Shown: positions 1 to 60,022 of the stretch, one piece after another
Layout: every line of letters begins with the position of its first letter
Position numbering within the stretch: the first letter of the stretch is position 1
Assembly: GCF_058153355.1 (NCBI RefSeq)
Contig: NZ_CM177019.1
Strand: one strand, 5' to 3'
Length of the DNA stretch: 64,000 bases
Translations under genes and position numbers: made by a program
Notes under the pieces: model-generated
The model's database searches: none
Told to the model about the DNA's origin: nothing
Seen by the model: only the letters and a program-made list of their open reading frames with translations

Positions 1-2313
1 ATGGCCGTTAAAGCCTCCGGGCGTTTTGTCCCTCCGTCAGCATTTGCTGCAGGCACCGGTAAGGCGTTTACCGGTGCTTATGCATGGAACGCGCCACGCG
101 AGGCTGTCGGGCGCGAAAGACCCCTTACACGTGACGAGATGCGTCAGGTGCAAGGTGTTTTATCCACGATTAACCGCCTGCCTTACTTTTTGCGCTCGCT
201 GTTTACTTCACGCTATGACTACATCCGGCGCAATAAAAGCCCGGTGCACGGGTTTTATTTCCTCACATCCACTTTTCAGCGTCGTTTATGGCCGCGCATT
301 GAGCGTGTGAATCAGCGCCATGAAATGAACACCGACGCGTCGTTGCTGTTTCTGGCAGAGCGTGACCACTATGCGCGCCTGCCGGGAATGAATGACAAGG
401 AGCTGAAAAAGTTTGCCGCCCGTATCTCATCACAGCTTTTCATGATGTATGAGGAACTCTGCGATGCCTGGGTGGATGCGCATGGCGAGAAAGAATCGCT
501 GTTTACGGATGAGGCGCAGGCTCACCTCTATGGTCATGTTGCTGGCGCTGCACGTGCTTTCAATATTTCCCCGCTCTACTGGAAAAAATACCGTAAAGGA
601 CAGATGACCACGAGGCAGGCATATTCTGCCATTGCCCGCCTGTTTAACGATGAGTGGTGGACTCATCAGCTTAAAGGCCAGCGTATGCGCTGGCATGAGG
701 CGTTACTGATTGCTGTCGGGGAGGTCAATAAAGACCGTTCTCCTTATGCCAGTAAACATGCCATTCGTGATGTGCGTGCGCGCCGCCAGGCAAATCTGGA
801 ATTTCTTAAATCGTGTGACCTTGAAAACAGGGAAACCGGCGAACGCATCGACCTTATCAGTAAGGTGATGGGCAGTATTTCTAATCCTGAAATTCGCCGG
901 ATGGAGCTGATGAACACCATTGCCGGTATTGAGCGTTACGCCGCCGCAGAGGGTGATGTGGGGATGTTTATCACGCTGACCGCGCCGTCAAAGTATCACC
1001 CGACACGTCAGGTCGGAAAAGGCGAAAGTAAAACCGTCCAGCTAAATCACGGCTGGAATGATGAGGCATTTAATCCAAAGGATGCTCAGCGTTATCTCTG
1101 CCGCATCTGGAGCCTGATGCGCACGGCATTCAAGGATAATGATTTACAGGCCTACGGTTTGCGAGTCGTCGAGCCACACCACGACGGAACGCCGCACTGG
1201 CATATGATGCTTTTTTGTAATCCACGCCAGCGTAACCAGATTATTGAAATCATGCGTCGCTACGCGCTCAAAGAGGATGGCGACGAAAGAGGAGCCGCGC
1301 GAAACCGTTTTCAGGCGAAACACCTTAACCGGGGCGGTGCTGCGGGGTATATCGCGAAATACATCTCAAAAAATATCGACGGATATGCACTGGATGGTCA
1401 GCTCGATAATGATACCGGCAGACCGCTGAAAGACACTGCCGCGGCTGTTACCGCATGGGCGTCAACGTGGCGCATCCCGCAATTTAAAACGGTTGGTCTG
1501 CCGACAATGGGGGCTTACCGTGAACTACGCAAATTGCCTCGCGGCGTCAGCATTGCTGATGAGTTTGACGAGCGCGTCGAGGCTGCACGCGCCGCCGCAG
1601 ACAGTGGTGATTTTGCGTTGTATATCAGCGCGCAGGGTGGGGCAAATGTCCCGCGCGATTGTCAGACTGTCAGGGTCGCCCGTAGCCCGTCGGATGACGT
1701 TAACGAGTATGAGGAAGAAGTCGAGAGAGTGGTCGGCATTTACGCGCCGCATCTCGGCGCGCGTCATATTCATATCACCAGAACGACGGACTGGCGCATT
1801 GTTCCGAAAGTGCCGGTCTTTGAGCCTTTGACTTTAAAAAGCGGCATCGCCGCGCCTCGGAGTCCTGTCAATAACTGTGGAAAGCCTGCCAGCAGTGATA
1901 CTTCGTTACCGGCTCCCACACCTTCTGAACATGCCGCAGCAGTGCTTAATCTGGTAGATGACGGTGTTATCGAATGGAGTGACCCGGAGGTTGTGAGGGC
2001 GCTCAGGGATGCATTAAAACACGGCCTGAAAACACCAAATCGTCAGCAAAGAAACGGAAGCCCGTTAAAACTACATGAAATAGCACCGTCGGCCAGACTG
2101 ACCAGGTCGGAACGAATGCAAATCACCCGTATCCGCGTTGACCTTGTTCAGAATGGTATCAGGCCTCAGCGATGGGAGCTTGAGGCGTTGGTTCGAGGAG
2201 CGAGAGTAAATTATGGTGATATGTCATTCAAATTTCCAATTGATGATCGATTTTATGATGATGTTAACTCTTTGAATTTATGGAGTATTGAGTCTCGTGT
2301 GAACTTCACATAA
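1..2313 (+). CDS. A: Phage replication initiation protein gpA (rolling-circle HUH endonuclease)
   Basis: 770-aa ORF; HxH motif (PHWHMML) and catalytic Tyr region (GYIAKYISKN); position before the A-cos cargo region as in P2. Last ~100 nt are AT-rich like the downstream cargo. Confidence 0.9.
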   Translation: MAVKASGRFVPPSAFAAGTGKAFTGAYAWNAPREAVGRERPLTRDEMRQVQGVLSTINRLPYFLRSLFTSRYDYIRRNKSPVHGFYFLTSTFQRRLWPRIERVNQRHEMNTDASLLFLAERDHYARLPGMNDKELKKFAARISSQLFMMYEELCDAWVDAHGEKESLFTDEAQAHLYGHVAGAARAFNISPLYWKKYRKGQMTTRQAYSAIARLFNDEWWTHQLKGQRMRWHEALLIAVGEVNKDRSPYASKHAIRDVRARRQANLEFLKSCDLENRETGERIDLISKVMGSISNPEIRRMELMNTIAGIERYAAAEGDVGMFITLTAPSKYHPTRQVGKGESKTVQLNHGWNDEAFNPKDAQRYLCRIWSLMRTAFKDNDLQAYGLRVVEPHHDGTPHWHMMLFCNPRQRNQIIEIMRRYALKEDGDERGAARNRFQAKHLNRGGAAGYIAKYISKNIDGYALDGQLDNDTGRPLKDTAAAVTAWASTWRIPQFKTVGLPTMGAYRELRKLPRGVSIADEFDERVEAARAAADSGDFALYISAQGGANVPRDCQTVRVARSPSDDVNEYEEEVERVVGIYAPHLGARHIHITRTTDWRIVPKVPVFEPLTLKSGIAAPRSPVNNCGKPASSDTSLPAPTPSEHAAAVLNLVDDGVIEWSDPEVVRALRDALKHGLKTPNRQQRNGSPLKLHEIAPSARLTRSERMQITRIRVDLVQNGIRPQRWELEALVRGARVNYGDMSFKFPIDDRFYDDVNSLNLWSIESRVNFT

Positions 2314-2367
2314 TATGGGGCCGTTGTAGGTGTTTGAATAATCAGACTTCAATTCAAAGGGATAATT

Positions 2368-3615
2368 ATGGTTATTTATCAAGGTGGTAAGATAATATCT
2401 GAAGATGATTTTTATTCTCATCTTTATTCGTTATGTCAGTTGGATAATGTAGGGGTTCTTTTAGGCGCGGGAGCATCGGTCGGATGTGGCGGCCAAACTA
2501 TGAAGCAGGTATGGCAGTTTTTTAAATATGAACATCCTGATCTATTGAATTTGTTACTAGAAAAATACTTATTGGTTGACAAAACTGAATCTGAACAAGA
2601 TATAGTTAATGTTGAGCTTCTAATTGATGAAGTAACTAAATTCTTGTCTGTGGCCAAAACAAGACGTAATGAAGACGAACAAAAAGAAATTAGTTTAATA
2701 TTAAGTGCTTTGTATAAACAAGTAACAAAGGCTGCATTGTTAACTGGAGAAGAGTTTGGTTGTAAAAATCAAGGGAAGAAAAAACAGTTTAAGTCTCATA
2801 AAGAATTAATTTCAAAGTTGATTTCAAATAGGCAGCCGGGACAATCGGCTCCGGCACTTTTTACTACCAACTATGATTTGGCATTAGAGTGGGCAGCTGA
2901 AGATTTAGGAATTCAGCTATTTAATGGTTTTTCAGGATTGCATACAAGACAATTTTATCCTCAAAATTTTGATTTGGCATTTAGAAATGTCAATGCAAAA
3001 GGGGAGGCTAGATTTGGTCATTATCACGCTTATCTATATAAATTGCATGGCTCTCTTACATGGTATCAGGATGATTTTTTAATAGTTAATGAGATAAGTG
3101 CATCTCAGGCATATGATAATTACATTAAAAATATTATTAATGGTGACGGTTTTTACTATGGTCAACATTTAATTTATCCGGGGGCTAATAAATATAGCCA
3201 TACAATTGGTTTTGTTTACGGTGAAATGTTTAGACGTTTTGGCGAGTTTTTGTCAAAACCTCAAACCGCTTTGTTTATTAATGGGTTTGGGTTTGGTGAT
3301 TATCATATAAACAGAATTGTTTTTGGTGCTTTGTTAAATCCGTCATTTCATGTTGTTATTTATTACCCTGATCTGGAGAATGCTTTAGATAAAGTTAGTA
3401 GAGGCGTTGCTTCTGAAGGTGAAAAGGCAATTGATGCTTTAAAAAATATGCAATTCAATCAAGTGACTATCGTGGGTGGGGGGGCAGATGCTTACTTTGA
3501 TAGTTTTGTGAAACATCTTCCTTATCCGGTGTTGTTCCCAAGAGAAAATACTGTTGATGACTTGGTTGAAGCTATTTCTAAATTGTCTAAAGGGGAAGGG
3601 AATGTCGCATTTTAA
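2368..3615 (+). CDS. SIR2-family (sirtuin-like, putative NAD+-consuming) protein, candidate defense effector
   Basis: 415 aa, AT-rich gene. Gly-rich dinucleotide-binding-like motif GAGASVGCGG (nt 2464-2493), TTNYD motif (nt 2863-2877), LHGS with candidate catalytic His (nt 3046-3048), matching SIR2_2-type signatures from memory. SD-like aagggataatt upstream. Confidence 0.7.
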   Translation: MVIYQGGKIISEDDFYSHLYSLCQLDNVGVLLGAGASVGCGGQTMKQVWQFFKYEHPDLLNLLLEKYLLVDKTESEQDIVNVELLIDEVTKFLSVAKTRRNEDEQKEISLILSALYKQVTKAALLTGEEFGCKNQGKKKQFKSHKELISKLISNRQPGQSAPALFTTNYDLALEWAAEDLGIQLFNGFSGLHTRQFYPQNFDLAFRNVNAKGEARFGHYHAYLYKLHGSLTWYQDDFLIVNEISASQAYDNYIKNIINGDGFYYGQHLIYPGANKYSHTIGFVYGEMFRRFGEFLSKPQTALFINGFGFGDYHINRIVFGALLNPSFHVVIYYPDLENALDKVSRGVASEGEKAIDALKNMQFNQVTIVGGGADAYFDSFVKHLPYPVLFPRENTVDDLVEAISKLSKGEGNVAF

Positions 3616-5422
3616 ACTATCTGAATTATCTGCTATTGGGTATGTCGTTGGTCTGGAGGGCGAAAAAATAAGGATAAATCTTCATGAAGGATTGCAAGGT
3701 AGGCTCGCCTCTCATAGGGATGGTGTTAGTTCTGTTACTCAGCCTGGAGATTTGATCGGTTTTGATGCCGGAAATATTCTGGTTGTGGCTCGAGTTACAG
3801 ATATGGCATTTGTCGAGGCTGATAAAGCACATAAGGCAAAAATAGGTACATCAGATATAGCAGATATGCCGTTAAGGCAAATAATAGCCTATGCAATAGG
3901 TTTTATTAGACGAGATATAGATGGATGTGTGTTTGTTTCGGAAGACTGGAGGTTACCTGCTCTGGGAGCATCCGCTGTCCCGTTAACATCTGATTTTTTA
4001 AATATCGTATATAGTATTGATAAAAATGATCTGGATAAAGCAATTGAGTTAGGAATAGATTCGAGGACTAAATCAGTTAAAATTTTAGCTAGCATTGATA
4101 AATTACTAACCAGGCATATGGCTGTTTTGGGCAGTACTGGATATGGTAAATCTAATTTTAATGCTTTACTTACACGCCGCATTTCAGAACAGTACCCTAA
4201 TGCAAGAATAGTAATTTTTGATATTAATGGCGAGTATTCTCAGGCTTTTGAAGGTGTTGCTAATGTTAAACATACTATTTTAGGTGAGTTACCAAAAGGA
4301 GAGTTTCCAAAACCACCTCTACAGAAAGGAGATATATTTTCTGAGAATGAACATTACTACTATAGAAAAATACCTTATCAAGCATTGGGATTTGCTGGGT
4401 TGATAAAATTACTACGCCCTAGTGATAAGACACAATTACCTGCATTAAGAAATGCGCTTAATGCTATAAATAGTGTTCATTTTTCCGATGATTCATTCTT
4501 TCTTAAGGATGAAGTAGGGGGCGTATTTAATATTTTTGATGATTGTAGAGATGAAGGGCAAGAGCTTTTATCTGCGTGGTTGAGTTTCTTAAGAAGAGGG
4601 ATGCTGTGTAAGGCAAATAAATGGCCGCCGTTTAAAAGTATTGCTAACTTGGTTGCGGAGTTTGGTTGCGTGGCGGCGGATTCGCGAAAAGCTGGATCTA
4701 GTAAACGAGATGCTTTTAGCTATGGTAATGTTCTGCCATTGATTAAGATAATTCAACAGTTATCAGAGGATTCTAGATTCAAGTATGTTGTTGATTTAAA
4801 TGGAGGTGGTGAATTATTAAGTGATGGCAAACATTGGGAATTAGCTATGAGACAGGAAGTTGATTATTTCTTTGGTAAAGAAAAGGGAGAGGAGAATGAC
4901 TGGAATATTCATATTGTTAATTTTAAGCATCTTTCACAAGATCATGCTCCAATGCTGTTAAGTGCATTATTAGAAATGTTTGCTGAAGTTCTCTTTCTTA
5001 GGGGGCAAAACAAAGCTTTTCCAACCGTGTTACTTCTTGAAGAGGCGCACCACTATTTAAGAGATCCTTATTCTGAAGTTGATGCACAAATTAAAGCTTA
5101 TGAAAGACTTGCTAAAGAAGGGCGTAAATTTAAATGTTCACTTATTGTGAGCACACAACGACCATCAGAGCTTTCATCAACAGTATTAGCAATGTGTGCA
5201 AATTGGTTTTCGTTGCGCCTGACAAATGAGCGTGATTTGCAGACTTTACGGTATGCGATGGAAAGTGGAAATGAGTTAATGATTCGGCAGATTTCTGGGC
5301 TTCCAAGAGGAGATGCAATAGCGTTTGGTGCTGCTTTTAATATACCCGTAAGAATTTCAATTCACCCTGCTGTACCCGGTCCGAGATCGTCTGACGCAAG
5401 TTATTCTCAAGAATGGCGATAA
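3602..5422 (+). CDS. HerA/FtsK-like P-loop ATPase, partner of the SIR2 protein
   Basis: About 606 aa from the ATG at 3602 (SD aggggaaggg just upstream; the track ORF starts at 3554). Walker A GSTGYGKS (nt 4130-4153), Walker B-like VLLLEEAHHY (about nt 5029-5058), STQRPSEL motif typical of HerA/VirB4-class ATPases. Start overlaps the SIR2 stop by 14 nt. Confidence 0.7.
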   Translation: MSHFKLSELSAIGYVVGLEGEKIRINLHEGLQGRLASHRDGVSSVTQPGDLIGFDAGNILVVARVTDMAFVEADKAHKAKIGTSDIADMPLRQIIAYAIGFIRRDIDGCVFVSEDWRLPALGASAVPLTSDFLNIVYSIDKNDLDKAIELGIDSRTKSVKILASIDKLLTRHMAVLGSTGYGKSNFNALLTRRISEQYPNARIVIFDINGEYSQAFEGVANVKHTILGELPKGEFPKPPLQKGDIFSENEHYYYRKIPYQALGFAGLIKLLRPSDKTQLPALRNALNAINSVHFSDDSFFLKDEVGGVFNIFDDCRDEGQELLSAWLSFLRRGMLCKANKWPPFKSIANLVAEFGCVAADSRKAGSSKRDAFSYGNVLPLIKIIQQLSEDSRFKYVVDLNGGGELLSDGKHWELAMRQEVDYFFGKEKGEENDWNIHIVNFKHLSQDHAPMLLSALLEMFAEVLFLRGQNKAFPTVLLLEEAHHYLRDPYSEVDAQIKAYERLAKEGRKFKCSLIVSTQRPSELSSTVLAMCANWFSLRLTNERDLQTLRYAMESGNELMIRQISGLPRGDAIAFGAAFNIPVRISIHPAVPGPRSSDASYSQEWR

Positions 5423-5576
5423 TCTTGTGGGAGAATGTAATAGGATAACGATAAGTGCATCTATCTGCATTAATTCGAATAAGGTTGAGAGGAGTTCAAA
5501 AACAAATTTAGACCGGCATTAGAGTGATTTAGATAGACATATGCAACTGCATTAAAACCGCCCCATGAAGCGGGCG

Positions 5577-5595
5577 GGCGAGGCGGGGAAAGCAC
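5577..5595. other. cos: Phage cos site (19-nt cohesive-end sequence)
   Basis: ggcgaggcggggaaagcac matches the P2 cohesive end as I recall it; lies next to the Q/P packaging genes as expected. Confidence 0.6.
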
Positions 5596-5737
5596 TGCGC
5601 GCTGGCGGTGGTGCTGATTTTATTTTTTCAGCGTCTGAGCGCGTCGTGATGGCGTTTAGATTGTTAGCCGGGGCGTTGGTGTGTCTGCGGGCTGTTTTGT
5701 GCGGTGGTGAGCGTGTGAGGGCGTGATGGCGGGGTGT

Positions 5738-5759
5738 AAAAAAGCCGCCCGCAGGCGGC
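5738..5759 (-). terminator. Rho-independent terminator downstream of Q
   Basis: On the minus strand: GC hairpin gccgcc-tgcg-ggcggc followed by a T-run, just past the Q stop. Confidence 0.55.
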
Positions 5760-5764
5760 GATGT

Positions 5765-6799
5765 TCAGCCGTTGTCAGTGTCCAGTGAGTAGTTTTTAAA
5801 GCGGATGACCTCCTGACCGAGCCAGCCGTTTATCTCGCGGATCCTGTCCTGTAACGGGATAAGCTCATTGCGGACAAAGACCTTTGCCACTTTCTCAATA
5901 TCACCCAGCGACCCGACGTTCTCCGGCTTGCCGCCCATCAACTGAAAGGGGATGCGGTGCGCGTCCAGCAGGTCAGCGGCGCTGGCTTTTTTGATATTAA
6001 AAAAATCGTCCTTCGTTGCCACTTCACTGAGCGGGATAATTTTAATGCCGTCAGCTTTCCCCTGCGGGGCATAGAGAAACAGGTTTTTAAAGTTGTTGCG
6101 GCCTTTCGACTTCACCATGTTTTCGCGAAGCATTTCGATATCGTTGCGATCCTGCACGGCATCGGTAACGTACATGATGTATCCGGCATGAGCGCCGTTT
6201 TCGTAATACTTGCGGCGGAACAGCGTGGCTGACTCATTCAGCCAGGCAGAGTTAAGGGCGCTGAGATATTCCGGCAGGCCGTACAGCTCCTGATTAATAT
6301 CCGGCTCCAGCAGATGAAACACGGAGCCAGGTGCGAAGGCTGTCGGCTCGTTGAAGGAAGGCACCCACCAGTAAACATCCTCCTCCACGCCACGGCGGGT
6401 ATATTTTGCCGGTGAGGTTTCCAGTCTGATGACCTTGCCGGTGGTGCTGTAACGCTTTTCCAGAAACGCATTGCCGAACACCAGAAAATCCAGCACAAAG
6501 CGGCTGAAATCCTGCTGGGAAAGCCACGGATGCGGGATAAATGTCGAGGCCAGAATATTGCGTTTGACGTAAATCGGGGAGCTGTGATGCACGGCAGCAC
6601 GCAGGCTTTTTGCCAGACCGGTAAAGCTGATTGGTGGCTCATACCATCTGCCGTTACTGATGCATTCGACGTAATCCAGAATGTCACGGCGGTCGAGTAC
6701 CGGCACCGGCTCACCAAAGGTGAATGCCTCCATTTTCGGGGCGCTGGCGGTCATTTTTTTTGCCGCAGGTTGCGGTGTTTTCCCTTTTTTCTTGCTCAT
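5765..6799 (-). CDS. Q: Portal protein gpQ
   Basis: 344 aa (P2 Q size); adjacent to cos; start overlaps the P stop (ATGA). Confidence 0.9.
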   Translation of the reverse strand: MSKKKGKTPQPAAKKMTASAPKMEAFTFGEPVPVLDRRDILDYVECISNGRWYEPPISFTGLAKSLRAAVHHSSPIYVKRNILASTFIPHPWLSQQDFSRFVLDFLVFGNAFLEKRYSTTGKVIRLETSPAKYTRRGVEEDVYWWVPSFNEPTAFAPGSVFHLLEPDINQELYGLPEYLSALNSAWLNESATLFRRKYYENGAHAGYIMYVTDAVQDRNDIEMLRENMVKSKGRNNFKNLFLYAPQGKADGIKIIPLSEVATKDDFFNIKKASAADLLDAHRIPFQLMGGKPENVGSLGDIEKVAKVFVRNELIPLQDRIREINGWLGQEVIRFKNYSLDTDNG

Positions 6800-20568: not shown

Positions 20569-21096
20569 ATGGACTGGAAAGATCTTGCATCAACCGCTGT
20601 GTATACAGGTATGACTGATGAAAATGAAAGCATATGGGAACGTGTTGATGGGGTTGACGTTGCCTTCATAGGTGCCTTTCTTACTGCGCACTTGAGCCTT
20701 GAAAAGTATATTACTGATTATCTTGGATTAAGATATCCTTCGTTAGCTTGGGGTGATGCAAAACTCACATTTTCACAAAAAATAGCTTTAATACAACATG
20801 AGCCTGCAAAATCCCCTTATGATGAAATATATTTAAGAATAAAAGACTTTAACAGCATAAGAAATAAAATCAGTCATCAATTGAATTATCAGATTACGGA
20901 TAAAGAAAAAAGTAAGTTTGTGGACTTCTACATGAAGATTACTAAAGCCAGTAAAACTAAACCAAATATTGATATTGATAACATGGCAGATTTGTTGGAT
21001 TTTTTCGTATCGATGACAAAATCCTATTTTGCTAGTGCTATTTCTTATTATCACTATAATAAAAAGGTTGCAGGTAAAAGTAATAAAATTGATTAA
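20569..21096 (+). CDS. Hypothetical protein with HEPN-like Rx4H motif; candidate single-gene anti-phage or abortive-infection cargo at the Z/fun hotspot
   Basis: 175 aa, strongly AT-rich, between G and FI. R98-N-K-I-S-H103 (nt 20860-20877) fits the Rx4-6H motif of HEPN RNase domains. SD aaaaggataaagc-ATG. Confidence 0.5.
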   Translation: MDWKDLASTAVYTGMTDENESIWERVDGVDVAFIGAFLTAHLSLEKYITDYLGLRYPSLAWGDAKLTFSQKIALIQHEPAKSPYDEIYLRIKDFNSIRNKISHQLNYQITDKEKSKFVDFYMKITKASKTKPNIDIDNMADLLDFFVSMTKSYFASAISYYHYNKKVAGKSNKID

Positions 21097-23600: not shown

Positions 23601-26040
23601 CAATGTAAAATTACAGGTATTGCTCAGGGCTGTTGACCAGGCATCCCGCCCGTTTAAATCCATCCGTACAGCGAGTAAGTCGCTGTCGGGGGAGATCCGG
23701 GAAACACAAAAATCACTGCGCGAGCTGAACGGTCACGCATCCCGTATTGAGGGATTCCGCAAGACCAGTGCACAGCTTGCCGTGACTGGTCATGCACTTG
23801 AAAAGGCACGGCAGGAAGCCGAAGCCCTTGCCACACAGTTTAAAAACACCGAACGTCCGACCCGTGCTCAGGCGAAAGTGCTGGAATCCGCAAAGCGTGC
23901 GGCGGAGGACTTACAGGCGAAATATAACCGCCTGACGGATTCCGTTAAACGCCAGCAGCGGGAACTGGCCGCTGTGGGAATTAATACCCGCAATCTTGCA
24001 CATGATGAGCAGGGACTGAAAAACCGTATCAGTGAAACCACCGCACAGCTTAACCGTCAGCGTGACGCGCTGGCGCGTGTCAGTGCGCAACAGGCCAAAC
24101 TTAACGCAGTCAAACAGCGTTATCAGGCCGGAAAAGAACTGGCAGGAAATATGGCCTCAGTGGGCGCTGCCGGTGTGGGGATTGCTGCTGCGGGAACGAT
24201 GGCCGGAGTTAAGTTGCTGATGCCCGGTTATGAGTTTGCGCAGAAAAACTCAGAATTGCAGGCCGTGCTAGGTGTGGCAAAAGACTCCGCCGAAATGACC
24301 GTACTACGCAAACAGGCGCGCCAGCTCGGCGACAATACCGCCGCCTCGGCGGATGATGCGGCCGGTGCACAGATAATCATCGCGAAAGCGGGTGGGGATG
24401 TTGATGCCATTCAGGCGACAACGCCGGTCACGCTGAATATGGCGCTGGCGAACCGCCGCACGATGGAAGAAAACGCCGCCCTGCTGATGGGGATGAAATC
24501 CGCCTTTCAGCTTTCAAACGATAAGGTCGCTCATATCGGGGATGTTCTCTCCATGACGATGAACAAAACCGCCGCTGATTTTGACGGCATGAGTGATGCG
24601 CTGACCTATGCCGCACCAGTGGCAAAAAATGCCGGTGTCAGCATTGAAGAAACCGCCGCAATGGTCGGGGCGCTGCATGATGCAAAAATCACAGGCTCAA
24701 TGGCGGGGACGGGAAGCCGTGCCGTGTTAAGTCGCCTGCAGGCACCGACTGGAAAAGCATGGGATGCACTCAAAGAGCTTGGCGTGAAAACCTCAGACAG
24801 TAAGGGAAACACCCGACCAGTATTTACCATTCTGAAAGAAATGCAGGCCAGCTTTGAGAAAAACCGGCTCGGTACTGCCCAGCAGGCCGAATACATGAAA
24901 ACCATTTTCGGGGAGGAGGCCAGCTCAGCCGCCGCTGTGCTGATGACTGCCGCGTCAACCGGAAAGCTGGACAAACTGACCGCTGCGTTTAAAGCCTCAG
25001 ACGGGAAGACCGCAGAGCTGGTAAATATCATGCAGGACAACCTCGGCGGTGACTTTAAGGAGTTTCAGTCCGCTTATGAGGCGGTGGGGACAGACCTGTT
25101 TGACCAGCAGGAAGGCGCACTGCGTAAGCTCACGCAGACGGCCACAAACTATGTGTTAAAACTCGACGGCTGGATCCAGAAAAACAAATCACTGGCGTCA
25201 ACCATCGGCCTCATTGTCGGTGGTGCACTGGCGCTGACTGCTGTCATCGGTGTCATTGGCCTCGTAGCCTGGCCGGTTATCACCGGCATCAATGCCATCA
25301 TCGCGGCAGCAGGCGCAATGGGGGCAATCTTCACGACGGTTGGTAGTGCCGTTATGACGGCCATCGGGGCGATTAGCTGGCCGGTTGTGGCTGTGGTGGC
25401 TGCCATTGTCGCCGGGGCGTTGCTTATCCGTAAATACTGGGAGCCTGTCAGCGCATTCTTTGGCGGTGTGGTTGAAGGGCTGAAAGCGGCATTTGCGCCG
25501 GTGGGGGAACTGTTCACGCCACTGAAGCCGGTGTTTGACTGGCTGGGCGAAAAGTTACAGGCCGCGTGGCAGTGGTTTAAAAACCTGATTGCCCCGGTTA
25601 AAGCCACACAGGACACCCTGAACCGTTGCCGTGATACGGGTGTCATGTTCGGGCAGGCACTGGCTGACGCGCTGATGCTGCCGCTTAATGTGTTTAACAA
25701 ACTGCGCAGCGGTATTGACTGGGTACTGGAAAAACTCGGCGTCATCAACAAAGAGTCTGACGCACTTGACCAGACTGCCGCCAGAACTCATGCCGCCACG
25801 TATGGCACAGGTGATTATATTCCGGCGACCAGCTCTTATGCGGGGTATCAGGCTTACCAGCCGGTCACGGCACCGGCTGGCCGCTCTTATGTGGACCAGA
25901 GTAAAAACGAATATCACATCAACCTGACGGGCGGTACTGCGCCGGGGACACAGCTTGACCGCCAGTTACAGGATGCGCTCGAAAAATACGAGCGGGATAA
26001 ACGTGCGCGCGCCCGTGCCAGCATGATGCATGACGGTTAA
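23593..26040 (+). CDS. T: Tail tape measure protein gpT
   Basis: 815 aa, coiled-coil N-terminal half and Gly/Ala-rich hydrophobic stretch; P2 position. Confidence 0.85.
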   Translation: MSNNVKLQVLLRAVDQASRPFKSIRTASKSLSGEIRETQKSLRELNGHASRIEGFRKTSAQLAVTGHALEKARQEAEALATQFKNTERPTRAQAKVLESAKRAAEDLQAKYNRLTDSVKRQQRELAAVGINTRNLAHDEQGLKNRISETTAQLNRQRDALARVSAQQAKLNAVKQRYQAGKELAGNMASVGAAGVGIAAAGTMAGVKLLMPGYEFAQKNSELQAVLGVAKDSAEMTVLRKQARQLGDNTAASADDAAGAQIIIAKAGGDVDAIQATTPVTLNMALANRRTMEENAALLMGMKSAFQLSNDKVAHIGDVLSMTMNKTAADFDGMSDALTYAAPVAKNAGVSIEETAAMVGALHDAKITGSMAGTGSRAVLSRLQAPTGKAWDALKELGVKTSDSKGNTRPVFTILKEMQASFEKNRLGTAQQAEYMKTIFGEEASSAAAVLMTAASTGKLDKLTAAFKASDGKTAELVNIMQDNLGGDFKEFQSAYEAVGTDLFDQQEGALRKLTQTATNYVLKLDGWIQKNKSLASTIGLIVGGALALTAVIGVIGLVAWPVITGINAIIAAAGAMGAIFTTVGSAVMTAIGAISWPVVAVVAAIVAGALLIRKYWEPVSAFFGGVVEGLKAAFAPVGELFTPLKPVFDWLGEKLQAAWQWFKNLIAPVKATQDTLNRCRDTGVMFGQALADALMLPLNVFNKLRSGIDWVLEKLGVINKESDALDQTAARTHAATYGTGDYIPATSSYAGYQAYQPVTAPAGRSYVDQSKNEYHINLTGGTAPGTQLDRQLQDALEKYERDKRARARASMMHDG

Positions 26041-27778: not shown

Positions 27779-27997
27779 ATGTTTCATTGTCCTTTATGCC
27801 AGCATGCCGCACATGCGCGTACAAGTCGCTATATCACTGACACGACAAAAGAGCGTTATCACCAGTGCCAGAACGTGAATTGCAGCGCCACGTTCATCAC
27901 TTATGAGTCGGTACAGCGATACATCGTGAAGCCGGGAGAAGTCCACGCCGTAAGGCCGCACCCGTTGCCGTCAGGGCAGCAAATTATGTGGATGTAA
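27779..27997 (+). CDS. ogr: Late-gene transcriptional activator Ogr (zinc finger)
   Basis: 72 aa from MFHCPLCQHAAHARTSRY (track ORF starts at 27716); CxxC...CxxxxC zinc-binding pattern. Confidence 0.85.
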   Translation: MFHCPLCQHAAHARTSRYITDTTKERYHQCQNVNCSATFITYESVQRYIVKPGEVHAVRPHPLPSGQQIMWM

Positions 27998-28008
27998 TTA
28001 CATACAGG

Positions 28009-28034
28009 AAGCCCCTCAGTCGAGGGGCTTTTTT
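28009..28034 (+). terminator. Rho-independent terminator after ogr
   Basis: gcccctc-agtc-gaggggc hairpin followed by tttttt. Confidence 0.6.
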
Positions 28035-28098
28035 GTCGATGTGGTCAATGTGTGGACGTGACCAGAAATAAATCCTTTTATTTCATTGTATTACGCGT

Positions 28099-28125
28099 AA
28101 AAAATAAGCCCGTGTAAGGGAGATT
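28099..28125. other. attR: Prophage attR core (P2 att core sequence)
   Basis: aaaaaataagcccgtgtaagggagatt matches the P2 att core as I recall it; coincides with the cyaR terminator. Confidence 0.6.
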
Positions 28126-28185
28126 ACACAGGCTAAGGAGGTGGTTCCTGGTACAGCTAGCATTTTATGGGTTATGTTTTTCAGC
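28099..28185 (-). ncRNA. cyaR: Hfq-dependent sRNA CyaR (RyeE)
   Basis: Minus-strand sequence gctgaaaaacataacccataaaatgctagctgtaccaggaaccacctccttagcctgtgtaatctcccttacacgggcttatttttt matches CyaR from memory, with terminator hairpin and U-run; downstream of yegQ as in K-12. Confidence 0.8.
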
Positions 28186-28219
28186 GAAACGGATGATAAC
28201 CTTAATAAATGCAGCTGTA

Positions 28220-28235
28220 TGTGATCGGTTTCTAA
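28220..28235 (-). promoter_or_regulatory. Putative CRP site of the cyaR promoter (class II position)
   Basis: TGTGA-N6-TCTAA centred about 42 nt upstream of the inferred CyaR 5' end; CyaR is known to be CRP-activated. Confidence 0.4.
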
Positions 28236-28269: not shown

Positions 28270-29631
28270 TCACTTACCGTGGGGGTTACGCGTGGTTTCC
28301 CCGGAGAAATTACGCATCAGCAGCGCGTAATTTAGCTCAAGATCCTGCGGGACCGGGATCCACACAGTATAACCATCGCCCGGTGCGACCGGCATTGCTT
28401 CGCCTTTGGCGTTTTCCATATGCTCAAGGGTAAAGTTAATGTTCCCTTGCGGCGTCATCAGCTCAAGGCTGTCGCCAACGGAGAATTTATTTTTCACCGC
28501 TACCGCCGCGAGGTCGCCCTTGCGCTCACCGGTAAACTCACCAACAAACTGCTGGCGGTCAGAAACTGAATAACCGTATTCGTAGTTCTGATAATCGTCG
28601 TGAGTATGACGACGCAGGAAACCTTCGGTATAGCCACGATGCGCCAGACCTTCCAGAGTTTCCAGCAGGCTGGTATCGAATGGTTTTCCCGCAGCTGCGT
28701 CATCGATAGCTTTACGGTAAACCTGCGCGGTGCGTGCGCAATAGTAGAAAGATTTTGTACGACCTTCGATTTTCAGCGAATGCACGCCCATTTTGGTCAG
28801 GCGTTCAACGTGGGCGATAGCGCGCAGATCTTTCGAGTTCATGATGTAAGTGCCGTGCTCATCTTCAAACGCGGTCATATACTCGCCCGGACGCTGAGCT
28901 TCTTCGATCATAAACACTTTGTCGGTTGGCGCGCCGATACCCAGCGTCGGCTCAACATTTTGCACCGGAATCGGCTCGTACTTGTGCACGATGTTGCCAA
29001 CGTCATCTTCTTTCCCTTCCTGGACGTTGTACTCCCAGCGGCAGGCGTTGGTGCAGGTGCCCTGGTTCGGGTCGCGCTTGTTGATATAGCCAGAGAGCAG
29101 GCAGCGACCGGAGTAGGCCATGCACAGCGCGCCGTGAACGAAGATCTCTACCTCCATATCCGGCACCTGATTGCGGATCTCTTCAATCTCTTCCAGCGAC
29201 AGCTCGCGAGAGAGGATCACGCGGGTCAGGCCCATTTGCTGCCAGAATTTCACCGTCGCCCAGTTCACGGCGTTAGCCTGTACCGAGAGATGGATCGGCA
29301 TTTCAGGGAAGTGCTCACGCACCAGCATAATCAGCCCTGGATCGGACATTATTAGCGCATCCGGCCCCATTTCCACCACCGGTTTCAGGTCACGGATAAA
29401 GGTTTTCAGCTTGGCGTTGTGCGGTGCAATGTTGACCACAACATAAAACTTTTTCCCCAGCGCATGGGCTTCATTAATGCCGAGCTGGAGATTTTCGTGG
29501 TTGAATTCGTTGTTTCGCACACGCAGGGAGTAACGCGGCTGGCCCGCATAAACAGCATCTGCGCCATAAGCGAAAGCGTAACGCATATTTTTCAGCGTTC
29601 CCGCCGGGGAAAGGAGTTCCGGTTTAAACAT
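28270..29631 (-). CDS. yegQ: Peptidase U32-family protein YegQ (TrhP)
   Basis: 453 aa, sequence recognised as YegQ; K-12 synteny. Confidence 0.9.
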   Translation of the reverse strand: MFKPELLSPAGTLKNMRYAFAYGADAVYAGQPRYSLRVRNNEFNHENLQLGINEAHALGKKFYVVVNIAPHNAKLKTFIRDLKPVVEMGPDALIMSDPGLIMLVREHFPEMPIHLSVQANAVNWATVKFWQQMGLTRVILSRELSLEEIEEIRNQVPDMEVEIFVHGALCMAYSGRCLLSGYINKRDPNQGTCTNACRWEYNVQEGKEDDVGNIVHKYEPIPVQNVEPTLGIGAPTDKVFMIEEAQRPGEYMTAFEDEHGTYIMNSKDLRAIAHVERLTKMGVHSLKIEGRTKSFYYCARTAQVYRKAIDDAAAGKPFDTSLLETLEGLAHRGYTEGFLRRHTHDDYQNYEYGYSVSDRQQFVGEFTGERKGDLAAVAVKNKFSVGDSLELMTPQGNINFTLEHMENAKGEAMPVAPGDGYTVWIPVPQDLELNYALLMRNFSGETTRNPHGK

Positions 29632-43124: not shown

Positions 43125-43265
43125 GGAGGTAGGCCGACGATTTCAGCGGGACGCTGAAACGGGAAAGCCCCTCCCGAGGAAGGGGCCTTAAATAAGGAAA
43201 GGGTCATGATGAAGTGGATCATCATCGTGGTGCTCTTAGTCGTTAGCTACCCAGCTTACTAAGAC
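43125..43265 (-). ncRNA. sib: Sib antisense sRNA (antitoxin) overlapping ibs copy 1; ends approximate
   Basis: By established knowledge Sib RNAs (~140 nt) are encoded antisense to and fully overlap ibs; boundaries not determinable here. Confidence 0.35.
43206..43262 (+). CDS. ibs: Ibs-family small hydrophobic toxin peptide (MMKWIIIVVLLVVSYPAY)
   Basis: 18-aa ORF in repeat unit 1; resembles IbsA/IbsB of E. coli. Confidence 0.7.
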   Translation: MMKWIIIVVLLVVSYPAY

Positions 43266-43452
43266 TACCAGGGCGGGGGAAACCCCGCTCAACCCTCACT
43301 CCTGAAAATATGCCTTCACGGTCAGAATGTCAATCCGCAGGCTTTGCAGTCTGCGATCCTGCCAGCAAATATTCTTTGCGAGTCGTTACGCAATAATCAC
43401 AGATGAAACTATTTTATCTAAGCGTTAGCGATAGACTGCATTCAGGGCAAAA

Positions 43453-43593
43453 GGAGGTAGGCCGACGATTTCAGCGGGACGCTGAAACGGGAAAGCCCCT
43501 CCCGAGGAAGGGGCCTTAAATAAGGAAAGGGTCATGATGAAGATACTCATCATCGTGGTGCTCTTAGTCATTAGCTTACCGGCTTACTAAGAC
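43453..43593 (-). ncRNA. sib: Sib antisense sRNA overlapping ibs copy 2; ends approximate
   Basis: As for copy 1. Confidence 0.35.
43534..43590 (+). CDS. ibs: Ibs-family small hydrophobic toxin peptide (MMKILIIVVLLVISLPAY)
   Basis: 18-aa ORF in repeat unit 2. Confidence 0.7.
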   Translation: MMKILIIVVLLVISLPAY

Positions 43594-43780
43594 TACCAGG
43601 GCGGGGGAAACCCCGCTCTACCCTCACTCCTGAAAGTATGCCTTCACAATCAGATTGTCAATCCGCAGGCTTTGTAGTCTGCGATCCTGCCAGCAAATAT
43701 TCTTTGCGAGACGTTACGCAATAATCACATGTGAAACTATTTTATCTGCAAGTTAGCGATAGACTGCTTGCATGGCGAAA

Positions 43781-43921
43781 GGAGGTAGGCCGCCGATTTC
43801 AGCGGGACGCTGAAACGGGAAAGCCCCTCCCGAGGAAGGGGCCTTAAATAAGGAAAGGGTCATGATGAAGCTACTCATCATCGTGGTGCTCTTAGTTATT
43901 AGCTGGCCAGCTTACTAAGAC
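43781..43921 (-). ncRNA. sib: Sib antisense sRNA overlapping ibs copy 3; ends approximate
   Basis: As for copy 1. Confidence 0.35.
43862..43918 (+). CDS. ibs: Ibs-family small hydrophobic toxin peptide (MMKLLIIVVLLVISWPAY)
   Basis: 18-aa ORF in repeat unit 3. Confidence 0.7.
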   Translation: MMKLLIIVVLLVISWPAY

Positions 43922-44135
43922 TACCAGGGCGGGGGAAACCCCGCTCTACCCTCACTCCTGAAGTTATGTTACTCCACCCTTATTGTCAATCTGTAAGTCC
44001 ACGTTCTTGCGGGGCGAATAGCAAAACCCTCTGCGCTTATGGGCCGAATTCTGAAAGTTGCTTTGCCTGCTCTTATTTCATTATTGCAGTCGGTATGATA
44101 CCGGACCTCAATAATTCTCTAAGAAAGGATTTCTT

Positions 44136-59542: not shown

Positions 59543-60010
59543 AGTAAGTACAAAACCTATTCGTTGTATGACAAATGTCACAATTCGATCATGGATAAAT
59601 CGGGGCAAAAATGCAATGTTGCAGCACTATTTATCTCATATTATTTGAGGGTAATAACCTCACATTATCCCTGAATTAAAAGTGGTAATAATAAAACATT
59701 ATTTAAGAAATATCGCATGTGGAGGCGCAATATTAAATATTGTCAACCTAAAGAAACTCCTAAAAACCATATTGAATGACACTTAATATAATTCTTAAAA
59801 ATAGCCAATTGCCGAATTGTTACCTTGCCTGCTATTCCGTTAGCTGTAACACTTCCTCCTGCATTATTGGAGAGCCAATATTCAATTACCATAATGTCAC
59901 CTTATATTCGGAAGTTAATTTCCGCAATAACCCTTGCTCATCAACGATTGTATGCAGAGAGGGTTTGAAAAATTAAGCTAAATCAGTGTGTTGGTAGCTA
60001 AAAAGCCAGG

Positions 60011-60022
60011 GGCGGTAGCGTG
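60011..60022 (+). promoter_or_regulatory. ops element (GGCGGTAGnnTG) of a JUMPstart sequence in the wza leader, RfaH antitermination site
   Basis: ggcggtagcgtg about 180 nt upstream of wza. Confidence 0.65.

Follow-up and report, generated by a model that had tools for sequence, protein, structure and literature searches.

Temperate phages with attachment sites in RNA genes include phage 186, which integrates in tRNA-Ile, and Fels-2 and SopE-phi, which integrate in ssrA; the 3' ends of these tRNA and tmRNA genes are rebuilt on integration (PMC3448106). The small RNA gene cyaR (ryeE) is also a published target. The genome paper of E. coli W gives 'cyaR RNA' as the P2-type insertion site in W (Wphi2), K-12 (ogr-D'), and B (PMC3032704), and a passage in Bobay et al. 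(PMC3603311), citing Wassarman 2001, names ryeE in E. coli as a previously known phage target. The annotated P2 record (AF063097) has the order ogr, terminator of the ogr/F operon, Int P-arm site, IHF site, attP core, Cox sites, P' arm, and int. At the cyaR site of E. coli K-12, a P2 remnant of approximately 0.6 kb (ogrK and yegZ, the latter corresponding to D'; annotated as 'cryptic prophage PR-X') keeps ogr and the 3' end of D. We take this remnant site to be locI, the preferred site of P2, which was reportedly described by Barreiro and Haggard-Ljungquist in 1992.

The 64-kb stretch of DNA analyzed here (referred to as the window) carries the same P arm, core, cyaR gene, and promoter as the K-12 locus, but has approximately 28 kb of an apparently intact P2-like genome in place of the 0.6-kb remnant (Table 1). 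The window has ogr, its terminator, the Int P-arm site, and the core in common with the P2 attP; past the core on its right, bacterial cyaR takes the place that the P' arm, Cox sites, and int have in P2. Phage elements (ogr and its terminator, then the Int P-arm and IHF sites) flank the core on the left and bacterial DNA flanks it on the right, which gives the junction the structure P-O-B' and makes it an attR. The cyaR gene is transcribed across it in the direction from the bacterial arm to the core. We conclude with high confidence that this junction is the attR of a P2-like prophage inserted where P2 normally attaches in E. coli, at the 3' end of cyaR, an sRNA gene activated by CRP. As cyaR/ryeE is listed as a P2 or phage target in both PMC3032704 and PMC3603311, this is an already known, ordinary integration junction.

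Table 1. Features of the prophage, the attR junction, and the cyaR locus, with positions in the 64-kb window.
Feature	Position	Strand	Basis
P2-like (Peduovirus) prophage, from gene A through the late operons and ogr to the att core	1-28125	+	ORF layout, P2 similarity, Pfam
ogr, late-gene activator, final phage gene before attR	27779-27997	+	Pfam Ogr_Delta 27779-27994, E 1e-21
Rho-independent terminator of the ogr/F operon	28008-28031	+	carried over from P2 24265-24288; 9-bp hairpin in fold
P arm, Int arm-type binding site	28036-28063	.	carried over from P2 24293-24320; sequence identical to P2
IHF binding region of the P arm	28067-28100	.	carried over from P2 24324-24357; 5 substitutions vs P2
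att core (O) of attR, 27 nt	28099-28125	+	AAAAAATAAGCCCGTGTAAGGGAGATT; unique exact match; identical (27/27) to annotated P2 attP core, AF063097, 24356-24382
CyaR intrinsic terminator hairpin	28134-28107	-	11 pairs, 6-nt loop UCUCCC; terminator scan
cyaR (ryeE) sRNA gene, 87 nt	28185->28099	-	Rfam RF00112; 100% identical to MG1655 cyaR b4438
Probable -10 hexamer TATCAT, -13 to -8	28193-28198	-	read from sequence
CRP-like site (putative)	28220-28235	.	TGTGATCGGTTTCTAA; TTAGAAACCGATCACA in cyaR orientation; pattern match, 2 mismatches
yegQ/trhP, bacterial gene upstream of cyaR	28270-29631	-	ORF; annotated yegQ/trhP in matching genomes

The boundary of the prophage is sharply defined. The similarity to P2 ends precisely at position 28125 (position 24926 of the megablast query), and the sequences diverge from 28126 onward. 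The core AAAAAATAAGCCCGTGTAAGGGAGATT occurs only once in the window even if as many as 3 mismatches are allowed, and none of 100 shuffles contained a match. The alignment of the window with the P2 attP record is free of gaps from ogr through the core, and the P2 features were carried over via this alignment (segment offset +27442). It contains five substitutions, all at 28086-28098 within the IHF region, adjoining the core on its left (cattgtattacgcgt vs caatttattgtacgt in P2); the same five are present in the MG1655 remnant. Int-, IHF-, and Cox-dependent recombination at this attR is putative, as the integrase mechanism is taken from established P2 biology. With a P2 arm and ogr on the left, the end of similarity at 28125, and cyaR on the right, the identification of the junction as a prophage attR in an earlier reading of the same DNA made from the sequence only (the sequence-only reading) is confirmed.

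The remainder of the element has the organization of P2. Its ORFs follow the order A, cargo, Q, P, O, N, M, L ... T, U, D, and ogr, which matches P2, with Q and P on the minus strand and O through D after them. Gene A is intact (Pfam Phage_GPA in 1-2310), and the P2 late genes from Q/P to D, together with ogr, are all full-length ORFs in the P2 order. In megablast comparisons with P2, fiAA91-ss, and other peduoviruses, the coverage of the prophage is 81-87% and the identity 95-97%. The ogr gene aligns to the annotated P2 ogr (P2 segment 337-555) and is annotated as ogrK in E. coli genomes. The window begins at the start codon of A, so that int, C, cox, B, and attL lie outside it. A collinear complete prophage of approximately 31.8 kb, with int, C, cox, and B, is present in E. 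coli PEC395; it shows 99.9% identity over positions 1-5800 and the same coordinate offset at attR, and its attL consists of yegR, followed by the core (27/27), P2 P' sequence, and int. Judging from PEC395, attL would be expected approximately 3.7 kb before position 1 of the window, and from the same relative we infer that the prophage is complete beyond the window and competent for excision. The second core copy at attL, which the sequence-only reading had proposed to locate, is thus seen in the collinear PEC395 prophage, whereas the window itself holds one core and no second copy at up to 3 mismatches.

A different view of the junction would be that it marks a decayed remnant like ogrK-yegZ' of K-12, with no full prophage and nothing mobile. 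Fragments do stand alone at the cyaR site in many E. coli genomes, e.g., MG1655, H2, and ETEC1701, and the int end of the element is outside the window. Nonetheless, we find this view hardly credible for a locus with an intact gene A and full-length late ORFs from Q/P to D and ogr in P2 order, and with a collinear counterpart in PEC395 that has int, C, cox, B, and a perfect attL.

The P2-like prophage differs from the K-12 remnant in its cargo as well. The slot between A and the portal gene Q (2368-5422, plus strand) contains a SIR2-HerA anti-phage defence pair, composed of a SIR2 protein (2368-3615; PADLOC SIR2, E 3e-188) and a HerA ATPase (3554-5422; PADLOC HerA, E 7e-272). The pair occupies the slot where P2 has tin/old, and it was found in the same prophage context in approximately 23 complete E. 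coli genomes. An ORF of 175 aa (20569-21096, plus strand) lies between the tail-fibre assembly gene G and the sheath gene FI, which corresponds to the Z/fun slot of P2; it had no match in Pfam or PADLOC, and its sole match was phrog_5483 (function not assigned). Elsewhere in the window, three tandem copies of SIB RNA (Sib antitoxin), scoring 136-140 bits each, are located at 43191-43989 on the minus strand, and three Ibs toxin genes are annotated at this locus in matching genomes. A JUMPstart element (53.8 bits) occupies 59984-60022 on the plus strand, presumably upstream of the colanic-acid (wza) cluster, as the gene order of K-12 would have it.

The bacterial side of the junction is equally well defined. 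The cyaR gene of MG1655 (b4438, 2167114-2167200) maps exactly onto the coordinates given in Table 1, which are also those of the sequence-only reading. The match to the Rfam family RF00112 (CyaR_RyeE) extends over 28102-28187 on the minus strand and scores 100.7 bits against a gathering threshold of 47 (E 6e-19, model positions 1-85 of 85). The CyaR seed CCAGGAACCACCUCCUUAGCC is present, and yegQ is located directly upstream of cyaR, as in MG1655. The terminator hairpin has the tail TATTTTTT (as RNA, UAUUUUUU at 28106-28099); the fold of the terminator has an energy of -15.9 kcal/mol (z -5.2). The seed and the terminator with its U-tail are present in 98 enterobacterial species representatives.

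When the coordinates of hairpin and core are compared, all of the hairpin except 9 nt of the 5' stem half falls within the core, as does the U-tract. These 9 nt (28126-28134) are bacterial, whereas the loop, the whole 3' stem half, and the 2 remaining nt of the 5' stem half belong to the core. The proposed overlap of the 27-nt core with the CyaR terminator is therefore borne out. Only attB and attR have the complete hairpin, since it straddles the boundary between the core and B'; attP and attL do not. A terminator that could serve int was also considered on the attP/attL side, but the sequence there does not fold into one (z = +0.63). In the tRNA- and tmRNA-targeting phages and at the ryeB/sdsR sRNA-locus insertion hot spot of Salmonella, the core likewise duplicates the 3' part of a hairpin-containing RNA gene, and the target gene remains intact after integration because its 3' portion is duplicated. 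In the cyaR case, unlike the tRNA-type targets, the shared stretch is just 27 nt long, the hairpin extends across the boundary of the core and B', and the target is the terminator of an Hfq-dependent sRNA rather than an acceptor or T-arm.

The mechanism expected from P2 biology would be as follows. The P2 integrase, a tyrosine integrase, would recombine within the 27-nt core that is identical in phage and chromosome. At the cyaR-proximal junction, the 5' stem half of the CyaR terminator would come from the bacterial B' arm, and everything from the loop to the U-tract would come from the core, part of which would be physically phage-derived. This junction would therefore again have a complete terminator, and attL would be left with a non-functional partial copy.

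The same reading had proposed that any difference in the duplicated core could alter the 3' end of CyaR. A segment of 291 nt comprising the promoter, CyaR, and the P arm is identical between the window and MG1655, save for 2 nt at the ogr stop, and the base-by-base comparison of the CyaR 3' end with MG1655 gave full identity. MG1655 is not a clean non-lysogen control, however, since it carries the ogrK/yegZ (D') remnant at the same junction, and it was rejected as a 'no phage' reference. For this reason, the unoccupied yegR-cyaR-yegQ sites of E. coli strains G4/9 and WP3 were used as controls. In both of them, the 27-nt core and cyaR are identical to the window. The WP3 site remains identical for 8 nt further past the core, whereas the G4/9 site has one extra A, which corresponds to a U7 tail rather than U6. 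The last 8 nt to the left of the core in the window (ttacgcgt) are thus those of the B arm of WP3-type unoccupied sites, so that for the WP3-type allele the identity between phage and host amounts to approximately 35 nt. Unoccupied bacterial sites align with the window rightwards from either 28091 or 28099. The hairpin energy is -15.9 kcal/mol in the window and at the unoccupied G4/9 site alike.

The U-tract of CyaR is polymorphic among unoccupied sites, with U7 in G4/9 and U6 in WP3 (compared at positions 3001-3010 of the G4/9 segment, 3009-3015 of the WP3 segment, and 28099-28104 of the window). The U6 tract also occurs in the window, in MG1655, and in the attL of PEC395. In short BLAST matches of the U6 and U7 alleles across approximately 5,400 genomes, the identity bands mix full and partial alignments.

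If lysogeny changed CyaR, it would do so through a difference in or near the phage-supplied core that alters termination, U-tail length, Hfq binding, or stability. In favor of this, the U-tract and everything 3' of it lie at the phage-proximal edge of the core and would be phage-supplied after integration, and U7 is found at some unoccupied E. coli sites (G4/9), as opposed to U6 followed by A at P2-type junctions. A poly(U) tail of at least 7 is reported to be necessary for Hfq binding, and readthrough of the CyaR terminator, which is described as leaky, amounted to 41% in a delta-hfq double-terminator assay (PMC9765468). If the pre-integration allele of this lineage was of the U7 type, integration would mean a U-run shorter by one. 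We nevertheless consider an alteration of CyaR function by lysogeny extremely unlikely. The core is identical at 27 of 27 positions to attP, MG1655, and the unoccupied sites; the WP3-type unoccupied allele equals the window for 8 more nt beyond the U-tract; the hairpin energy does not differ from that of an unoccupied site; and MG1655, in which CyaR was characterised as functional, has exactly the junction of the window. On the sequences compared, CyaR is unchanged by the integration, since the phage and chromosomal cores are identical, and the proposed alteration of its 3' end was not upheld. Identity of this 3' end with that of non-lysogens had been set beforehand as the mark of a routine integration site, and the locus is regarded as such.

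Upstream of cyaR, the CRP-like site is centered at -42.5 relative to +1 at 28185 (the annotated 5' end) and contains one perfect half-site (TCACA). The CRP pattern alone does not exceed chance expectation (33 matches vs 25.9 expected), so phylogenetic conservation was used in its place. When 92 distinct cyaR upstream sequences from representatives of enterobacterial species were aligned, both half-sites (CTTAGA ... GATCACA) proved at least 95% conserved at a fixed spacing. The same level of conservation (at least 95%) was observed for TAT.AT at the position of TATCAT, the probable -10 hexamer of cyaR. The CRP-like site is a putative CRP binding site and activator site, and the location of a CRP site about 42 nt upstream of the CyaR start in the sequence-only reading agrees with it. 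That CyaR depends on CRP is known from the literature, as cited in PMC3333887 and PMC11795201.

With CyaR preserved, the sole change on the host side would concern the DNA beyond the U-tract, where the yegR-side flank would be replaced with the phage P arm, the ogr terminator, and antisense ogr. Given the 41% intrinsic readthrough of the CyaR terminator reported for the delta-hfq assay (PMC9765468), transcripts that pass it in a lysogen would continue across the Int/IHF P arm and then, in antisense, through the ogr terminator and ogr; in the antisense orientation the ogr hairpin is without a U-rich tail. Readthrough from cyaR driven by cAMP-CRP could conceivably couple the carbon status of the host to P2 late-gene activation or to the occupancy or excision of attR, which we consider very unlikely. 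Since K-12 has the same junction, such coupling would in any case be a property of the integration site and not of the strain.

Occupied sites of this type are common in E. coli. A match was obtained in 5423 complete E. coli genomes; the arrangement is ogr-attR-cyaR in 1131 of them (~21%) and an unoccupied B-O-B' site in 4183. In the scan of species representatives, the CyaR terminator is conserved across Enterobacteriaceae, with an invariant loop. The exact P2 core was found there only in E69 (an E. coli lineage), in an E. coli-like contig of a 'Collinsella' MAG, and in two Kluyvera species; in other genera, the core differs mostly at 1-3 positions and at up to 6. A P2-type P arm with the motif ..TGAAATAAA.GGATTTATTTCT.. 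directly follows the CyaR U-tract in approximately 12 species representatives (Citrobacter, Enterobacter, E. albertii, and Huaxiibacter), and homologues of ogr and gpD were confirmed in three to four of them. In these representatives, the core variant matches the host's own allele of the CyaR terminator, and core variants appear to follow the host allele. Because P2-type P arms stand after the CyaR U-tract across genera, the 3' end of cyaR is regarded as a family-wide P2-type att site.

Several individual records at this site deserve separate mention. In E. coli SCPM-O-B-8794 (seed at 3427-3447), the CyaR 3' stem half is TTACACAGGC, which gives a perfect stem, compared with TTACACGGGC, which contains a U.G wobble. 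The altered stem half is followed by a different P2-like P arm, and a phage-borne core variant may have changed the CyaR terminator in this strain. The 9.7-kb contig JAIJJM010000051.1, assigned to a 'Collinsella sp.' MAG, contains cyaR, an exact P2 attR, ogr (100% amino-acid identity), and gpD (98.7%); it almost certainly comes from E. coli and was placed in the Collinsella MAG by a binning error. The 2.4-kb record AY639599.1 ('Phage TP') is actually an E. coli chromosomal segment with a short P2 remnant at cyaR; besides the yegR-side B arm and core, it comprises ogr and, where yegQ would be expected, a 'putative protease'.

The B arm of unoccupied E. coli sites is itself similar to a phage arm. 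Approximately 40 nt of it (TCGATGTGGTCAATG...GACCAG; located at 2945-3000 of the G4/9 segment and 2950-3008 of the WP3 segment) are approximately 80% identical to the P2 P arm, without the IHF region. The comparison of the B arm with the P2 P arm scored 23-24, against a shuffle maximum of 16 (0/2000). In the cryptic Escherichia lineages (E69, E1V33, and E. whittamii), the start of yegS lies at most approximately 85 nt after the cyaR terminator, whereas E. coli sensu stricto has approximately 0.8 kb extra between the two, comprising yegR and the P-arm relic. This suggests that the E. coli B arm is the scar of an ancient P2-type integration, of which yegR is possibly a part. No significant candidate was obtained for a decayed core copy at the left-hand end of the yegR segment in E. 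coli (297 of 2000 shuffles scored equally well). A search for sequenced phages whose P arm resembles the B arm of E. coli matched only records that contain host flank (Phage TP, AY639599, and vB_EcoM-720R8).

The importance of the junction beyond correct annotation is small. The boundary of the prophage belongs at 28125, within the cyaR gene, and MG1655 is unusable as a phage-free reference at the cyaR locus. Although a prophage lies next to it, the cyaR gene of this strain is intact and of the K-12 type. The locus is a textbook case of a conserved, structured RNA gene whose 3' end serves a tyrosine integrase as attB and is rebuilt on integration.
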